DNA of 62,391 nucleotides from Deinococcales bacterium (GTDB taxonomy: Bacteria > Deinococcota > Deinococci > Deinococcales > JAAFIG01). The number at the start of each line of letters is the position of its first letter. Positions within the stretch are counted from its first letter, which is position 1. A model generated the notes under the pieces. That model was given only the letters and a program-made list of their open reading frames with translations, ran no database searches and had not been told where the DNA came from. Shown piece after piece: positions 14,861 to 20,192 of this stretch. The translations under genes were made by a program, and so were the position numbers. The stretch spans positions 1-62,391 of the forward strand of contig JANNVX010000100.1 in NCBI GenBank assembly GCA_031414595.1. The letters are read 5' to 3'.

Positions 14861-15501
14861 ACGATATTGGTGTTTTAATCGTGGATGACCACTTGATTCT
14901 GCGTAGTGGTCTGCGCTTACTGCTCGAGTCCGAAACGGGTATCGAAATCATTGCCGATGCTGCCAGTGCCGAAGATGGGCTGCGTTTAGCCTCCGAACTG
15001 CAACCCGATGTGATTTTAATGGACATTCAATTGCCCAATATGAACGGTATCGAAGCCACCAGACGAATAAAAAGCACCAACCCCAGAATTCAAATTTTAA
15101 TGCTGACGATGTTCCAAGACGACGACAGTGTTTTTGCGGCGATTCGGGCTGGCGCTCAAGGCTACTTATTAAAAGGTGCAAGCCAAGAAGAAATTGCCCA
15201 AGCCATACGCGGTGTGGCACGCGGCGAGGCTGTATTTGGGGCTGGGGTAGCCTCTCGGGTCTTAACCTATTTTGCCGCCAACCGACCAATGGCTGCGCCC
15301 TTGTTTCCAGAACTGACGGCTCGAGAACGCGAAATCCTTGAGTTGATCGCCCAGCACGCTACAAACTCCACGATTGCGACAAGGCTTGAGTTAAGCCCCA
15401 AAACAGTTCGCAACTATGTCTCGAATATCATCTCGAAGTTACAAGTTGCGAGCCGTTCTGAAGCCATCTGGGTGGCAAAAAATGCAGGTATTGGTTTATA
15501 A
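14857..15501 (+). CDS. NarL/LuxR-family response regulator
   Basis: IVDDH, DVILMDI receiver; LTAREREIL...[12 protein letters not shown]. Confidence 0.95.
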
Positions 15502-16461
15502 GGCTAGGGTTTTTGCCAGTTCACGCAACTCGAGCGAAACATCTTTGCGTTTTGTCCATGTATCTTTGAGCGGCACATGAACAATGCTGCCAGCCACCAC
15601 CCCAATCATCACGTCGTTTTTACCAGCAATCAGGGCTTCGACTGCCCCGTACCCCATCTGTGAAGCCAAAATTCGGTCACGGGCGCTGGGGCTGCCGCCG
15701 CGTTGCACATGACCAAGAATACTGACCCTTGCGTCTAAGCCAGTCGCCGCCGAAATTGCTTCCATGACTTTAATGCCGCCGCCTTCGTAGCCTTCGGCAA
15801 CCACAATAATGCTTGAGGTTTTACCTTTGGCGGCACTGGCACGAACAATTTCCACGACTTGCTCGAGCGTTTCGGGGCGTTCTGGAATCAGAACATCTTC
15901 TGCGCCGCCAGCAATGCCAACATCCAAAGCAATAAAACCAGCGTGTCTGCCCATGACTTCAATGATGAAAAGCCGTTCGTGGCTGGCGGCGGTGTCGCGG
16001 ATTCGGTCGATGGCTTGCAAGGCAGTGTTGACGGCTGTGTCGTAGCCAATCGTGTAATCTGTGCCGTACAAGTCGTTGTCTATTGTGCCGGGTACGCCAA
16101 TGACTGGAAAACCCTGTTCTTCGGACAGAAAGTGCGCCCCGTGGAAACTACCATCGCCGCCAATCACCACCAAGCCTTCGATGCCCGCGTTTCGTAAGTG
16201 CTGGGCAGCTTGGGCGCGTCCTTCGGCGGTTATAAATGGTTTGCAACGGGCAGTTAATAAAATTGTGCCACCGCGTTGAATCGTGTTGGCGACATCTCGA
16301 GCGCCGAGTTTGGTGAATTCGCCTTCCATCATGCCGGCATAACCGCGTTTGACTCCCATCACTTCGATACCATGTGCAGTTGCGGTGCGTACCACAGCCC
16401 GAACCGCAGCATTCATGCCGGGTGCGTCGCCTCCACTGGTTAAAACTCCGATTCGTTTCAT
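15496..16461 (-). CDS. pfkA: ATP-dependent 6-phosphofructokinase
   Basis: [41 protein letters not shown]. Confidence 0.97.
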
Positions 16462-16563
16462 ATTCTCTCCACTAAAACTCGAGGCGCATTGTGACACGTT
16501 GTAGGGTAGCAAATGCAAACGCTCGTTCAGGTTTGAGGCTAAAAGATGATTTTCAAGGTTGCG

Positions 16564-18015
16564 TCAGGGATTGCGGTTAAGTTTTTCTTGGACTTGAGCG
16601 AGCGCATCTCGAGTGAATTGGATATTTTCTGGTATATCTCCGCCTTGAATTCTTATGTCAATAGATTTTACAAATGTTTTCTCTGCTTCCTCGAGACGAC
16701 CAGAATCATGTAATACACGACCAAGTATGTGTAATAGGATTCCACGACTCGTCAATGTATCTCCGCCTTGTTCCGCTAATTCCAAACTGGTTCTAAGTGC
16801 TTTTTCCGCTTCCTCGAGACGACCAGAATCATGCAGCACACGACCCAGATAGTCCATTGTGATTCCACGACTTGTTAATGTATCTCCGCCTCGTTCGGCT
16901 AATTCCAAACTGGTTCTAAATGCTTTTTCTGCTTCCTCGAGACGACCAGAATCATGCAGCACACGACCTAGATAGTCCATTGTGATTCCACGACTTGTTA
17001 ATGAAGCATCATCTTTTTCCTGCCATTCTAAACAGACTCTAAGTGCTTTTTCTGCTTCCTCGAGACGACCAGAATGATGTAGTACCTGACCAAGTGCGTG
17101 CATTGTGATTCCACGACTTGTTAATGAATCCTCACCTTGTTCTGCCCATTCCAAACTGGTTCTAAGTGCTTTTTCTGCTTCTTTGAGACGACCCTGAAGC
17201 ATCAAGGTGATACCAATACCAGTTAAAGAACCTACTTTTTCTAGAACTAAAGCGCCAATCATTTCTTCAATTGCCAGCACTTCTCGAGCTACTGCTTCGG
17301 CTTCGACATATCGTTGTCGGTGCATTAAACCACCATAGGCACGTATTAACATCCGAATTAGCATCTTTTCTTCGCCTTTGACCCCGCGCAATTGTGCAGC
17401 CGTCTCGAGGGCAATGTCTGGGTCAAGTAACGCATCGCTCGAATTGTCTTCTTGTAATACTTGCCTACCCATTTCTAGGGCATTTTCTCGCTGCTCGAGG
17501 CGCAAATCACTTAGCATCACTTCTGGTTTTATGTTCACCAGCATTGAACGGATAGACCACCAATCCTTTGCTGACATTTGCAGCACTTCGTTTGTCCAGA
17601 TGGCTGCCACAATAAAAATTGGGATGTTGTAGCGGCGCATCAGTTCGTCCCGCCGTTCATTGACTCGAGCTACAGCGTACTGCCATGCGCTGCGCCATGC
17701 TTGGTGCTGTGGGTCAAACTTGGTGCTAACACTGGCAAGCCAAATTGCTCCTGCGCCTTCTAGGTTTGCGCCCTCGAGTAACCACGGGGCAAATTGAGCT
17801 TGGAGTTCTTCGGGTGTACCAATTTCGATTTGTTCTAAGCGTTGCCCTTTGGTTTTTAAGAACTGCTCGAGAAGCGAGGCACAGACGCGGGCTGCTCCTG
17901 CATCTGGCACTAATATAATGTTGCTCGAGAAACCTGTGCTTAACTCGAGAAAGTCCAGTAAGTACGACCACTCCTCGGCGGCTTGTTTGCCAAATCGGTG
18001 TTCGAGTTCATTCAT
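16564..18015 (-). CDS. TPR-repeat protein with N-terminal degenerate NTPase-like domain
   Basis: 41-aa TPR units SRGITM..LGRVLHDSGRLEEAEKA.R..LE; N-terminus has VNERRDEL...DWWSIR; start overlaps the ATPase stop. Confidence 0.8.
   Translation of the reverse strand: MNELEHRFGKQAAEEWSYLLDFLELSTGFSSNIILVPDAGAARVCASLLEQFLKTKGQRLEQIEIGTPEELQAQFAPWLLEGANLEGAGAIWLASVSTKFDPQHQAWRSAWQYAVARVNERRDELMRRYNIPIFIVAAIWTNEVLQMSAKDWWSIRSMLVNIKPEVMLSDLRLEQRENALEMGRQVLQEDNSSDALLDPDIALETAAQLRGVKGEEKMLIRMLIRAYGGLMHRQRYVEAEAVAREVLAIEEMIGALVLEKVGSLTGIGITLMLQGRLKEAEKALRTSLEWAEQGEDSLTSRGITMHALGQVLHHSGRLEEAEKALRVCLEWQEKDDASLTSRGITMDYLGRVLHDSGRLEEAEKAFRTSLELAERGGDTLTSRGITMDYLGRVLHDSGRLEEAEKALRTSLELAEQGGDTLTSRGILLHILGRVLHDSGRLEEAEKTFVKSIDIRIQGGDIPENIQFTRDALAQVQEKLNRNP
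16660..17200. repeat. 123-bp tandem coding repeats in the TPR gene
   Basis: GCTTCCTCGAGACGACCAGAAT at 16685, 16808, 16931 and 17054; variant copy at 17177. Confidence 0.9.
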
Positions 18016-19339
18016 TTTCTTTTTGGAGTTCTGCAACGATTCGTTTGGCTTCAGGGAGAATCATTTGGTGTGCATCGTACCATTCGTCGCCGTTTTTGAA
18101 GAACAAAATCATGTGTGAATCAATCAGTAATTTAATACGGTCAATTTCGGCGCTTTCAGGGTTTACGGTGCGGGTTCGGGCAATTTCTTCAATCACAATG
18201 GCTTTACTTTGACTCAAGGGTAAGTAATTATTACGAATTTGACGGGTGGCACTCTCGAGAATGGTTGTTTTGACTGGGAAATTGCGTTGACTACGAACAC
18301 TGGCTTCGTAGACCATGCGAAACAAATCGCGGATGTCTCCACTACTGGCACGAATTAAAATTTCGGCGGCTGCATCTGGGTCTGCGCCGAAGAAACGAGT
18401 CCAGGCGTTTGGTTCAACGGCTTCAAAACGCTTTTTGAGCAGCTTAGTAAGCCTTGCAATGCCTTCTTTTTTCTCGGTACGTTCTGGATTGTTACGCCAG
18501 AGTCGTACTCCTGAAAGCATGGTGGTGTCACCCTCGAGTGGTCTTAAAAATTTAAGCCACGGTGGAATGGTGTAAATCATGTGGACATAAGGTAATGCCA
18601 GTTTTGCTCGGTGATTCTGAAAAATAAATTCAATGCTTTTTTGGACATTTAATTGCGATTGTTCATCTGAGCCTTCGATTTTTTCTAGGTTATCGAAAAT
18701 AAAAATAATTTCTTTGTCACCACGTTCGTCTCGAATTGTTGCGACAACTTGTTCAAAATACCTGCGAATTTCGGAATTGAGTTGTTCTACATGGGTTTCA
18801 AAGGCTTTACGAAAACGGGTGCGGAATGTTTCGTTGCCTTTTAGTTCTAAGTTGACACTGGCAAAGTCCATACTCAAACCAAGTTCGGTTATTTTTACAT
18901 CGGTTCGTTTTAGGTAATCGGTTAGCCTATCCCACAAGTCCTTGAGTTTACTTTCGGGATTTTTGACAAAGCCTCCAAAAGCAACAGCAATGGTGTAGAG
19001 CAAATCAGTAATATTGATTGGTGCATTTTTGGAGATAAATTGGTTTGCATCGGCGTAAAGGGCAATGTAACCTTCTGCCTCGAGTTTACCCACCAATTGA
19101 TTTAAGAGTGTACTTTTGCCTGAGCCACGAAAGCCAGAAAAAAACTGAATGCTTTCTCTGGTGATTTGATTGGCTCGGATTCGCTCGAGCATGGATTCGG
19201 TTGGTTCGATATACCCATCTTCGTCATCAGGGTACGGTTCGTAAAGCGGCACGTACAATTTACTATGCGCCTCGAGTGGTTTCTCGGGTTTTAATTGCAC
19301 AGTCAGGTGTTGCAAAAATTCCAAATCGGTGTACGGCAT
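18008..19339 (-). CDS. P-loop ATPase (AAA+/STAND/KAP-like)
   Basis: Walker A GFRGSGKST, Walker B IFIFDNLEK, GDIRDL; C-terminal FKNGDEWYDAH. Confidence 0.8.
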   Translation of the reverse strand: MPYTDLEFLQHLTVQLKPEKPLEAHSKLYVPLYEPYPDDEDGYIEPTESMLERIRANQITRESIQFFSGFRGSGKSTLLNQLVGKLEAEGYIALYADANQFISKNAPINITDLLYTIAVAFGGFVKNPESKLKDLWDRLTDYLKRTDVKITELGLSMDFASVNLELKGNETFRTRFRKAFETHVEQLNSEIRRYFEQVVATIRDERGDKEIIFIFDNLEKIEGSDEQSQLNVQKSIEFIFQNHRAKLALPYVHMIYTIPPWLKFLRPLEGDTTMLSGVRLWRNNPERTEKKEGIARLTKLLKKRFEAVEPNAWTRFFGADPDAAAEILIRASSGDIRDLFRMVYEASVRSQRNFPVKTTILESATRQIRNNYLPLSQSKAIVIEEIARTRTVNPESAEIDRIKLLIDSHMILFFKNGDEWYDAHQMILPEAKRIVAELQKENE

Positions 19340-19364
19340 AAAAACATAATACTCGAGAAAGCCC

Positions 19365-20192
19365 TCATGACCCAAGTTCAGATACGACTTTCAGGGCTAA
19401 GTCATAGGCAGCATTGCGCTCGAGTCCAAGTTGTTGCAATTTGGCTCGGATTTCTTTGACCCGCAGTCCAGCCTTGGCATACTCAAGGGCTTTTGAACCA
19501 TAATCGAGGCTAGGCTCGAGCGAAACCATGTTTGGCGCTAAGACCAGGACAATTTCGCCTTTGACTTCGCCGCTAAAGTGTGTGGCAGTAGCCTCGAGTG
19601 TACCGCGATAAATTTCTTCGTGCAGTTTAGAAAGTTCTCGAGCCACGGCGCAAGCTCGAGCCGAACCGCACAAGGCACTTAACTCGAGCAGCGTGGCGTG
19701 TAAGCGGTGTGGGTTTTCATATAAGACACTGGTGATGTTTGAAACACTGATTTCCTCGAGTCGCTCAGTCCGCTCACGCCCAGAGCGCGGCAAGAACCCA
19801 TGAAAAGTAAAACGTCCACTGGGTAAGCCCGACAAGGTAATGGCGGGAATCAGGGCATTTGCACCAGGTAGAGCCTCAATGCGAATGCCAAGCTCGAGCG
19901 CAATGCTGACCAGTTCCGCCCCGGGGTCAGAGAGTCCGGGGCTGCCAGCGTCGGACACAAATGCCACACGGGGGTATTTCTCGAGGACAGACTTGCCGCG
20001 CTCTAACATCGTGTGGGCATCTAAACGCTCGAGCGGTTTATGAATTCCAAAGTGTTGTAATAATCTGCCAGAGTGACGGGTGTCCTCACAGGCGATACAA
20101 TCAACGTTTTTAAGCGTCTCGAGGGCGCGTAGTGTGATGTCGCCAAGATTGCCGATGGGGGTGGGGACAAGATAGACGATGCGTTCAGTCAT
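19365..20192 (-). CDS. rsmI: 16S rRNA C1402 2'-O-methyltransferase
   Basis: VPTPIGNLGDITLRA, CEDTR, SDAGSPGLSDPG, ARELSKLHEE. Confidence 0.95.
   Translation of the reverse strand: MTERIVYLVPTPIGNLGDITLRALETLKNVDCIACEDTRHSGRLLQHFGIHKPLERLDAHTMLERGKSVLEKYPRVAFVSDAGSPGLSDPGAELVSIALELGIRIEALPGANALIPAITLSGLPSGRFTFHGFLPRSGRERTERLEEISVSNITSVLYENPHRLHATLLELSALCGSARACAVARELSKLHEEIYRGTLEATATHFSGEVKGEIVLVLAPNMVSLEPSLDYGSKALEYAKAGLRVKEIRAKLQQLGLERNAAYDLALKVVSELGS

Follow-up and report, generated by a model that had tools for sequence, protein, structure and literature searches.

The window analysed here, a 62,391-nucleotide stretch of DNA from a Deinococcales bacterium, carries a pair of overlapping minus-strand genes between rsmI and pfkA (positions 16564–19339 in the list of open reading frames, ORFs). 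The first gene encodes an AAA+ ATPase with intact nucleotide-binding motifs, and the second encodes a partner in which an AAA+ core lacking a P-loop is followed by a helical linker and an array of tetratricopeptide repeats (TPR). From comparisons across bacterial genomes, it is clear that the two genes are coupled as a conserved cassette, and that this cassette is accessory, not core, in its own lineage and has a hypervariable TPR array. The pair may be considered as an ATP-driven switch of the NOD-like receptor (NLR) or STAND type that is split over two polypeptides and is most likely conflict-related, an interpretation that is given an even chance of being correct.

A conserved two-gene cassette

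The ATPase gene (18008–19339, minus strand) encodes 443 amino acids from an ATG at 19339, or 455 amino acids from a TTG in the longer ORF (18008–19375). The partner gene (16564–18015, minus strand) encodes 483 amino acids from an ATG at 18015; its longest ORF (16564–18036) encodes 490 amino acids from a TTG. The end of the ATPase gene and the start of the partner gene overlap by 8 nucleotides (18008–18015, minus strand, ATGAATGA). The junction reads ...GAAAATGAATGAACTC, with the TGA stop of the ATPase at 18010–18008 and the ATG of the partner at 18015–18013. Both ORFs are intact. NCBIfam equivalog models identify the flanking genes as rsmI (19365–20192; TIGR00096, 230.7 bits against a cut-off of 167.9) and pfkA (15496–16461; TIGR02482, 414 bits against a cut-off of 371), which bears out the arrangement given in a preliminary description of this locus.

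A pattern scan that covered 185,579 species, each represented by a single genome, identified 304 loci with relatives of the ATPase, and the best 80 of the 304 were analysed. In 77 of these 80, a hidden Markov model (HMM) of the dead domain matched a gene directly downstream on the same strand; two of the three remaining loci end within 100 nucleotides of the ATPase gene at contig ends. Since the order, strand and direct adjacency are the same in 77 of 80 loci, the pairing is more than chance. The sole evaluable locus without a partner gene (L024, 7001–12069) has an altered P-loop region in its ATPase (SACQGAGKT), and the ATPase is followed there by a 381-amino acid ORF and then by a 739-amino acid ORF, with motifs that by eye resemble E1 (ThiF-type) and JAB peptidase.

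Counted by hand from their titles, the best 80 loci come from Acidobacteriota (37), Myxococcota or delta-labelled genomes (10), Verrucomicrobiota (9), Acetobacteraceae (7), other Proteobacteria (5), Deinococcales (4), Actinomycetota (3) and others (5), with at least eight phyla overall. Close relatives are metagenome-assembled genomes labelled as Deinococcales, among which L001 is 99% identical. Cultivable carriers of the cassette include Roseomonas nepalensis, a Myxococcus sp. and Sorangium cellulosum. In most related loci, the partner ORF starts between 49 nucleotides before and 21 nucleotides after the end of the ATPase ORF, and a 4-nucleotide overlap of the ATGA type is found in 26 of 64. 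The partner domain counts refer to these 64 downstream ORFs, which were taken from a first ORF pass. In phmmer searches, 62 of the 64 match the dead domain. By family, 58 carry TPRs, two carry either TIR_2 and NACHT or SIR2_2, NACHT and FGE-sulfatase, and four carry none, three of them being short or cut. The two exceptional partners consist of the dead domain with TIR_2 and NACHT (L004) and of the dead domain with SIR2_2, NACHT and FGE-sulfatase (L023). Partner lengths range across the family from approximately 340 to 1190 amino acids.

When 1.84 billion cluster representatives (clusters at 50% identity) were searched with a profile of the dead domain, 2159 of them matched at E ≤ 1e-3. The match starts within the first 30 residues in all 150 of the representatives listed, and among 148 new representatives at least 115 carry TPR_12 and one carries TIR_2. 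Single chains in which the ATPase and the partner are fused were not found among proteins of 777–2215 amino acids, which is weak evidence. Beyond the pair itself, the 80 loci have no conserved gene in common: no further gene cluster is present in more than eight of them, and the clusters common to seven or eight loci are metabolic genes of related Pyrinomonadaceae genomes. In agreement with the preliminary description, which saw no evident effector, none is conserved among the partners or the neighbouring genes.

Relatives are also carried by plasmids. An Acidisarcina plasmid bears a family member at 36% identity beside CHAT, LRR, IS6 and integrase genes, with the IS6 transposase and the integrase located within 5 kb of the pair. 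More distant ATPase relatives (22–24% identity; HMM E 7e-56 for one) are found on cyanobacterial plasmids (L094–L097), where they are followed, often with a 4-nucleotide overlap, by nSTAND1-WD40 (1290 amino acids), TIR (697 amino acids) or giant WD40 proteins (1844 and 1920 amino acids). The neighbours at these four loci include NB-ARC, NACHT and TIR genes, HicAB and integrases.

Folds of the two proteins and their predicted complex

The ATPase (18008–19339, minus strand) may be considered in terms of an N-terminal helix, an ASCE core with a helical insert (approximately residues 128–206), a lid and a C-terminal winged helix. The Walker A motif SGFRGSGKST (residues 68–77; 19109–19138, minus strand) includes S68, G69, R71, G72, G74, K75 and T77, all of which are invariant in 20 relatives. 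The Walker B motif IIFIFDNLE (residues 211–219; 18683–18709, minus strand) includes D216 and E219, likewise invariant, and residues 211–216 form a strand in the predicted model. The intact Walker A and B motifs that had been read from the sequence thus fall on invariant columns. All 32 invariant residues of the ATPase are present in the window copy, invariance having been computed with the window sequence included. The lid contains the motif G334-D-I-R337-D338 (18326–18340, minus strand), for which the family consensus is GGHxRDL; G334 and R337 are invariant and D338 is nearly so. This may be a counterpart of the GDAR sensor-2 motif of Cdc6, and R337, which lies within the predicted partner interface, is a candidate sensor-2 arginine. 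In the winged helix, D407 is invariant and H409 nearly invariant, and both fall within the predicted interface region. STAND NTPases possess a conserved winged-helix histidine that touches the nucleotide (the MHD-type motif).

An AlphaFold2 (AF2) model of the ATPase, calculated from a 20-sequence alignment, has a mean predicted local distance difference test score (pLDDT) of 89.4 and a predicted template modelling score (pTM) of 0.88. The top Foldseek matches were ORC4, BrxC and archaeal Orc1/Cdc6 (E 1e-6, prob 1.0). With VIA-align, the highest score was obtained for Cdc6 (Z 15.4; root mean square deviation, rmsd, 3.5 with 243 aligned), followed by TnsC (Z 15.1), archaeal ORC2/Cdc6 (Z 15.0, over residues 5–443), the archaeal ATPase_2 structures 2qen (Z 14.2) and 2fna (Z 13.8), and the NOD modules of the NLRs NRC4 (Z 14.0) and CED-4 (Z 13.0), both aligned over residues 18–443. 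Because the scores for Cdc6, TnsC, ORC, ATPase_2 and NLR structures are near ties, the predicted fold places the ATPase in the ORC/Cdc6-TnsC-STAND assemblage and not in one family within it.

Sequence families agree only weakly with this placement. Pfam AAA_22 (PF13401), a generic model, is above its cut-off (30.3 bits versus 27), and ATPase_2 (PF01637) is 0.5 bit below (32.7 versus 33.2). The STAND models all score below their cut-offs (in brackets) on the window ATPase: AAA_16, 23 (32.6); NACHT, 14.4 (26.7); nSTAND_NTPase5, 19.3 (34); nSTAND6, 15.3 (27.7); and nSTAND3, 14.0 (27.2). Across 20 family members, AAA_16 matches 16, nSTAND_NTPase5 matches eight and NACHT matches three (E 1e-6 to 0.01), with best E values of 1.1e-6, 3e-5 and 7.9e-4, respectively. 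A search of the ATPase profile against the sequences of solved structures returned P-loop matches only (SRP receptor, DnaX and kinases). The STAND label used in the preliminary description is therefore a loose one: it agrees with the ORC/Cdc6-STAND-like fold of the ATPase, and it fits less well with the sensor being on a separate chain and with the STAND models lying under their cut-offs.

Some likeness to a described family is seen in NCBIfam NF047389 (P-loop ATPase, Sll1717 family) and in cyanobacterial clusters annotated as KAP or AAA_22. The model alignment is partial, spanning residues 69–384 of the 455-amino acid ORF (approximately 57–372 from the ATG); however, the score of 25.5 bits is far under the cut-off of 75, and the ATPase is not a member. 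A literature search on "Sll1717" found no paper. The closest ESM Atlas clusters to the ATPase are mainly cyanobacterial hypothetical proteins of 430–480 amino acids, which serve as leads only.

The partner begins with the dead AAA+ domain (residues 1–166; 17518–18015, minus strand), in which W16, W92, N119, R122, A149, D151, W153 and S154 are invariant. The P-loop position reads LVPDAGAAR, with no GK[ST], and the family consensus after strand 1 is PDxxxA. The segments NERRDEL (119–125) and DWWSIR (151–156), from which a degenerate NTPase without Walker A was originally proposed, cover the invariant columns N119, R122, D151, W153 and S154. Among the conserved arginines, R122 is present in 59/59 sequences, R146 in 56/59 and R156 in 57/59. 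This domain is covered by no family in Pfam, NCBIfam or PADLOC, and its profile searched against the sequences of solved structures gave nothing below E 0.09. The AF2 model (59-sequence alignment, pLDDT = 89.3) presents a five-stranded α/β AAA+ core. Foldseek matched it to Hda, IstB, Rif2, ORC and RFC (E 7e-5, prob 1.0), and to DnaC. In VIA-align, Hda scored highest (Z 10.5; rmsd 3.7, 143 aligned), followed by RFC (10.4), TnsC (10.3) and ORC3 (9.8), and AAA+ proteins made up all 50 of the 50 rows listed. As judged from these models, the partner N-terminus is a degenerate NTPase, an AAA+ core without a P-loop.

The linker (residues 167–240; 17296–17517, minus strand) comprises a low-confidence segment (pLDDT = 65–74 over residues 161–200) and then helices with the pattern DPxxAL...RLRG. 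The TPR array (approximately residues 241–475; 16591–17295, minus strand) has five 41-residue units and matches TPR_12 in four stretches (122.7 bits, cut-off 30.1). Its inner units correspond to a 123-nucleotide tandem repeat (16678–17193, 4.2 copies, 85% matches by Tandem Repeats Finder, direct-repeat family D1). The region also matches TPR_MalT (64.5 bits, cut-off 45) and, weakly, AfsR and NsdA.

The complex of the ATPase with partner residues 1–166 was predicted with each protein having its own alignment. The interface score (ipSAE, interaction prediction score from aligned errors) was 0.78 (0.76, 0.78 and 0.81 in separate runs) and the best control scored 0.00. At least 89% of the contacts recur from run to run, with partner pLDDT ≥ 88. 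The ipSAE mark is reached by 116 of 157 solved complexes and by 2 of 215 mismatched pairs, a rough guide only as custom alignments were used, and resemblance to solved AAA+ assemblies could contribute to the score. On the ATPase side, the predicted interface is formed by the N-terminal helix (6–19), Walker A residues 71–72, residues 220–229 after Walker B, R337, the lid (341–351) and the winged helix (404–409); on the partner side, it is formed by residues 18–31, 109–120 and 146–161. Seven of the 15 most conserved partner residues lie in this interface, which takes up 33 of 166 residues (hypergeometric p = 0.013). The model supports a heterodimer in which the ATPase and the partner bind each other through this interface, and suggests that the dead domain occupies the place of a neighbouring AAA+ protomer on the nucleotide face of the ATPase. 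Taken with the folds and the gene coupling, the complex model, which passed its controls, gives good support to the earlier proposal of a split active/inactive NTPase sensor.

Accessory status and divergence of the cassette

The lineage was examined in 41 related genomes, eight of which belong to the same genus; G001 is the closest relative with an intact pair. Strong ATPase matches were found in six of the 41 genomes and two of the eight. Within the genus, two genomes have an intact cassette, one has a remnant and three more have distant paralogues only. In G002, G003 and G006, rsmI directly adjoins pfkA and the cassette is absent. When the locus is aligned with such empty sites, the intergenic sequence next to pfkA proves to be retained at the right border. 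Around the pair in two other Deinococcales genera, the 1.5 kb to each side contains neither rsmI nor pfkA. The cassette is therefore accessory, with flanks that differ between genera, and not a core syntenic pair. Its G+C content is 0.40–0.51, compared to 0.54–0.55 for pfkA and rsmI.

In G007, a TPR-only remnant lies between rsmI and pfkA (L090, 2322–3440). Two ORFs of 226 and 115 amino acids match partner residues 198–475, and neither an ATPase nor a dead-ATPase domain is found with them. G006, which is without the rsmI–pfkA cassette, encodes a second, divergent ATPase (L088, 2–2721, minus strand; 411 amino acids, approximately 26% identical) that overlaps a downstream TPR protein. The N-terminus of that TPR protein is like the dead domain by eye and misses the dead-domain HMM at E 1e-3; the pair adjoins an hrcA-like gene, named by eye. 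From this pair, it follows that the ATPase and TPR architecture is broader than the family studied.

Divergence from G001 is distributed very unevenly. Nucleotide identity is 88% for rsmI, 98.9% for the ATPase (99% in protein), 96.4% for the dead domain, 82% for the linker (80% in amino acids over its region), approximately 68% for the TPR array and 91.6% for pfkA. The TPR array is only partly alignable and has approximately 48% amino acid identity, and it is plainly hypervariable. The synonymous divergence (dS) is 0.036 for the ATPase and 1.05 for the TPR array. With ratios of nonsynonymous to synonymous divergence (dN/dS) of 0.11 and 0.09, respectively, the ATPase and the dead domain are both under purifying selection. 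A comparison of the window (15496–20192) with L001 presents the same kind of mosaic, with the ATPase far closer than the flanking housekeeping genes rsmI and pfkA. Since the ATPase is at 98.9% nucleotide identity when rsmI is at 88% and pfkA at 91.6%, the pattern suggests that the segment encoding the ATPase and the dead domain was recently exchanged between the lineage of the window and that of L001.

The palindrome CTCGAG is present in 321 copies in the 62,391 nucleotides of the window, compared to 7.4 ± 2.6 expected from dinucleotide-preserving shuffles (approximately 43-fold). It occurs once per 194 nucleotides and throughout coding regions (for example at 114–119, 16478–16483 and 19352–19357). 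This resembles the highly iterated palindrome signature known from HIP1 of cyanobacteria.

Possible function and relation to known systems

The scheme that we infer, from ligand gating and oligomerisation to the conflict role and the output, would run as follows. The first protein would be the working nucleotide-binding module, with an ORC/Cdc6-STAND-type AAA+ core, a lid and a winged helix, and the second would supply the ligand-binding TPR array. The dead AAA+ domain would tether this array to the ATPase by docking over its nucleotide-binding face like an adjacent protomer. A ligand, most likely a foreign or stress-related protein, would bind the variable TPR array and change the interface, which may alter the nucleotide state or the oligomerisation of the ATPase. 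The cassette is gained and lost, its TPR module is exchanged or diversified fast, and its most likely role would be in biological conflict against phages or other mobile elements. In the effector-less form, the assembled complex may sequester or act as a scaffold, it may bind DNA by means of the winged helix, or it may activate an effector that is not linked to the cassette.

A more elaborate version, which is considered rather unlikely, would make the pair a widespread NLR that consists of two chains and has no effector, the dead domain acting as an Hda-like regulator of nucleotide state. Ligand capture by the TPRs would gate ATP turnover and an ORC- or TnsC-like oligomer would form on nucleic acid or on an invader protein, with immunity arising from sequestration or DNA occupancy. 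The ATPase might, in addition, license conventional bacterial NLRs in trans, because the same docking domain sits on the TIR-NACHT and SIR2-NACHT proteins.

Several results weigh against a conflict switch or against parts of its mechanism. Profile-profile comparison of the dead domain with the ATPase gave a probability of 4%, which is not significant, and the sole alignment, which pairs the Walker A strand with strand 1 of the dead domain, is subject to the same limit; common descent of the two domains is thus argued from their fold. On the ATPase side, the predicted interface shows no enrichment of conserved residues (7/67, p = 0.32). The window partner has Q146 (codon at 17578–17580) in place of the arginine found in 56/59 of the family, and K150 (codon at 17566–17568) in place of the proline found in 57/59; both are shared with G001 and are the sole such substitutions in the alignment. 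Should R146 act in trans, the window copy would lack that arginine. An arginine finger at this position was accordingly rejected for the window copy.

The genomic context also speaks on this side. Neither protein matched a system in PADLOC-DB v2.0.0 (2023) beyond P-loop or generic TPR noise, the best match of the ATPase being PDC-S01 over 42 residues of the P-loop (E 3e-4) and those of the partner being generic TPR models only. Among neighbouring proteins, 7 of 114 (at 6 of 29 loci) matched defence models at E ≤ 1e-15, a count that covers two genes per side at 29 of the 80 loci and has no background rate; the seven are mostly generic (a helicase, a group-II-intron-like reverse transcriptase, E1 and PDC candidates). 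The common neighbours across loci are mostly housekeeping genes (amidohydrolase, permease, aldehyde dehydrogenase and SecA), and those in the window include a two-component pair and chemotaxis genes. Most partners carry TPRs only, as is the case for at least 115 of the 148 cluster representatives and for 58 of the 64 partners taken from genomes. Phage records contained no homologue, and 2.9 million viral contigs gave 115 candidate stretches with one marginal match of 74 residues.

The divergence of the cassette must be read with similar care. The TPR array has a dN/dS of 0.43 with dS saturated at 1.05, and on these values its divergence fits replacement or conversion of the repeat module better than positive selection, a claim that was dropped. 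The cassette holds 18 copies of CTCGAG in 2776 nucleotides, and with this host signature it is not a recent import from a distant lineage. An antiphage or conflict system, as the preliminary description proposed, thus remains plausible on account of the accessory status, the variability of the TPRs, the TIR- and SIR2-NACHT partners and the plasmid relatives, with the PADLOC searches, the neighbours, the lack of an effector and the phage searches standing against it.

These points have a bearing on a different explanation, possible but doubtful, in which the pair is a regulatory or assembly switch outside conflict: an ATP-dependent adaptor or chaperone, or a signal integrator in the style of MalT or AfsR, dispensable and lineage-variable as are many STAND/TPR regulators of bacteria with large genomes. 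It would account for partners that nearly all lack an effector, for neighbours that are mostly housekeeping with few PADLOC matches nearby, for the TPR_MalT match with its weak AfsR and NsdA companions, and for purifying selection on both genes. The pair is also packed between rsmI and pfkA with promoter- and terminator-like sites no more frequent than chance (3 and 5 versus 5.3 and 7.2 expected in a scan of the pair region), a result that is uninformative in itself. However, family scans detected no DNA-binding helix-turn-helix or other output domain, and the patchy distribution, in which a single genus is polymorphic for insertion or deletion of the cassette and includes a decayed remnant, is less readily explained. 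The same holds for a TPR array at approximately 68% DNA identity compared to 88–99% in its flanks, for partners in which this docking domain is joined to TIR- or SIR2-NACHT, and for plasmid-borne relatives beside NLR-like genes. A conflict-related split switch is considered the more probable reading.

It is very improbable that the pair is an accessory AAA+ component of a mobile element, one that had inserted between rsmI and pfkA and whose transposition or choice of target the pair would steer as TnsC or IstB do. TnsC ranks among the best folds for the ATPase (Z 15.1) and for the dead domain (Z 10.3), the latter also matches IstB and DnaC, genomes have or lack the cassette at a single chromosomal site, and the Acidisarcina plasmid has its IS6 transposase and integrase close by. 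Against this, no transposase, integrase or third gene is conserved across the 80 loci, and neither terminal inverted repeats nor a clear target-site duplication was found at the cassette borders, where the repeats (D4, D8 and I1–I3) all contain the genome-wide CTCGAG motif. To our knowledge, neither TnsC nor IstB systems are characterised by TPR arrays. Equally slight is the chance that the window copy is a functionless remnant heading for the G007 state after the loss of R146 and P150: decay within the genus is seen in G007 and the two substitutions occur among the 59 sequences in this copy and G001 alone, but both ORFs and all 32 invariant ATPase residues are intact, the dN/dS values against G001 are low, and since G001 shares Q146 and K150 the change is old and tolerated.

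The cassette would represent a common alternative to the known bacterial NLR/STAND receptors, which are single chains with a built-in effector. Here, the switch and the sensor would be separate proteins, joined by a dead ATPase domain that is outside the curated families, and usually without an effector. The dead domain defines at least 2159 clusters at 50% identity, and 304 genomes at the species level, drawn from many soil phyla, carry the pair. At 2.8 kb, the pair is small and self-contained with a predicted, defined heterodimer, and its function is therefore directly testable; the rare TIR- and SIR2-NACHT variants offer a readable output in NAD+ consumption. Even if not defensive, the pair would be an uncharacterised and widely distributed ATP-dependent switch.

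In mechanistic terms, there is an analogy with AAA+ assemblies that contain dead subunits, such as Orc2/3 in ORC, δ/δ′ in clamp loaders, Hda with DnaA, and Rif2. The best folds of the dead domain are Hda, RFC, ORC3 and Rif2, and its predicted seat on the nucleotide face of the active ATPase is that of a protomer. Hda stimulates the hydrolysis of DnaA-bound ATP through an arginine finger, which serves here as a mechanistic analogy only. In contrast to those assemblies, the present pair has neither a sequence relationship to them nor a replication context.

In the accessible text of the published papers, no description of the ATPase/dead-ATPase-TPR pair was found; their source data may list the family. 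Nothing relevant was found in the literature on nSTAND3–6, and the EACC1 and KAP passages of Kaur 2020 and 2021 deal with other systems. The nearest is nSTAND2, a predicted mobile two-gene operon of one active and one eroded NTPase (Kaur, Iyer, Burroughs and Aravind, eLife 2021, PMC8195603). As described there, both proteins have a conserved arginine, a hetero-multimer is suggested, the eroded protein is fused to GT4 or HEPN, and the family is closer to CR-ATPases, S29/Dap3 and RNA12. The likeness is one of architecture only: two genes, with one active and one inactive core of the ORC/STAND clade, the inactive one bearing a variable module. In contrast, the ATPase described here is nearest to Cdc6, TnsC and ATPase_2 by fold, and the inactive module amounts to no more than an AAA+ core of 166 residues. 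What is fused to it is a TPR array; at least 115 of the 148 representatives have no enzyme there, and the partner scans showed no GT4 or HEPN. This separation relies on the published description, as no nSTAND2 model was among the Pfam matches.

The inactive STAND modules iSTAND (Kaur et al. 2020, PMC7159879) and iSTAND2 (Kaur et al. 2021) belong to MoxR-vWA ternary conflict systems. As far as those passages describe them, they share with the present pair a constant, catalytically inactive STAND-type NTPase beside an active AAA+ ATPase, the frequency of TPRs or other repeats in what is termed the "effector position", and their occurrence in soil and multicellular-type bacteria. The ternary core of MoxR and vWA is required there, whereas the present cassette has no conserved third gene and an active partner that is ORC/Cdc6-like; the gene clusters common to seven or eight of the 80 loci are metabolic, with no MoxR or vWA among them.

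The last comparison is with Avs and other bacterial NLR-like STAND receptors, described in the available text (Nature 2026, PMC13581612) as single chains of effector, NTPase and TPR. They too combine an NTPase of the ORC/STAND clade with a variable TPR sensor, and rare partners in the present family carry TIR or SIR2 plus NACHT. The present pair differs in having no PADLOC match and in scoring under the cut-offs of the NACHT, AAA_16 and nSTAND models. The main distinction is one of design: in the cassette, the N-terminal effector is absent, and the NTPase and the sensor are separate chains that are joined by the pseudo-AAA+ domain.

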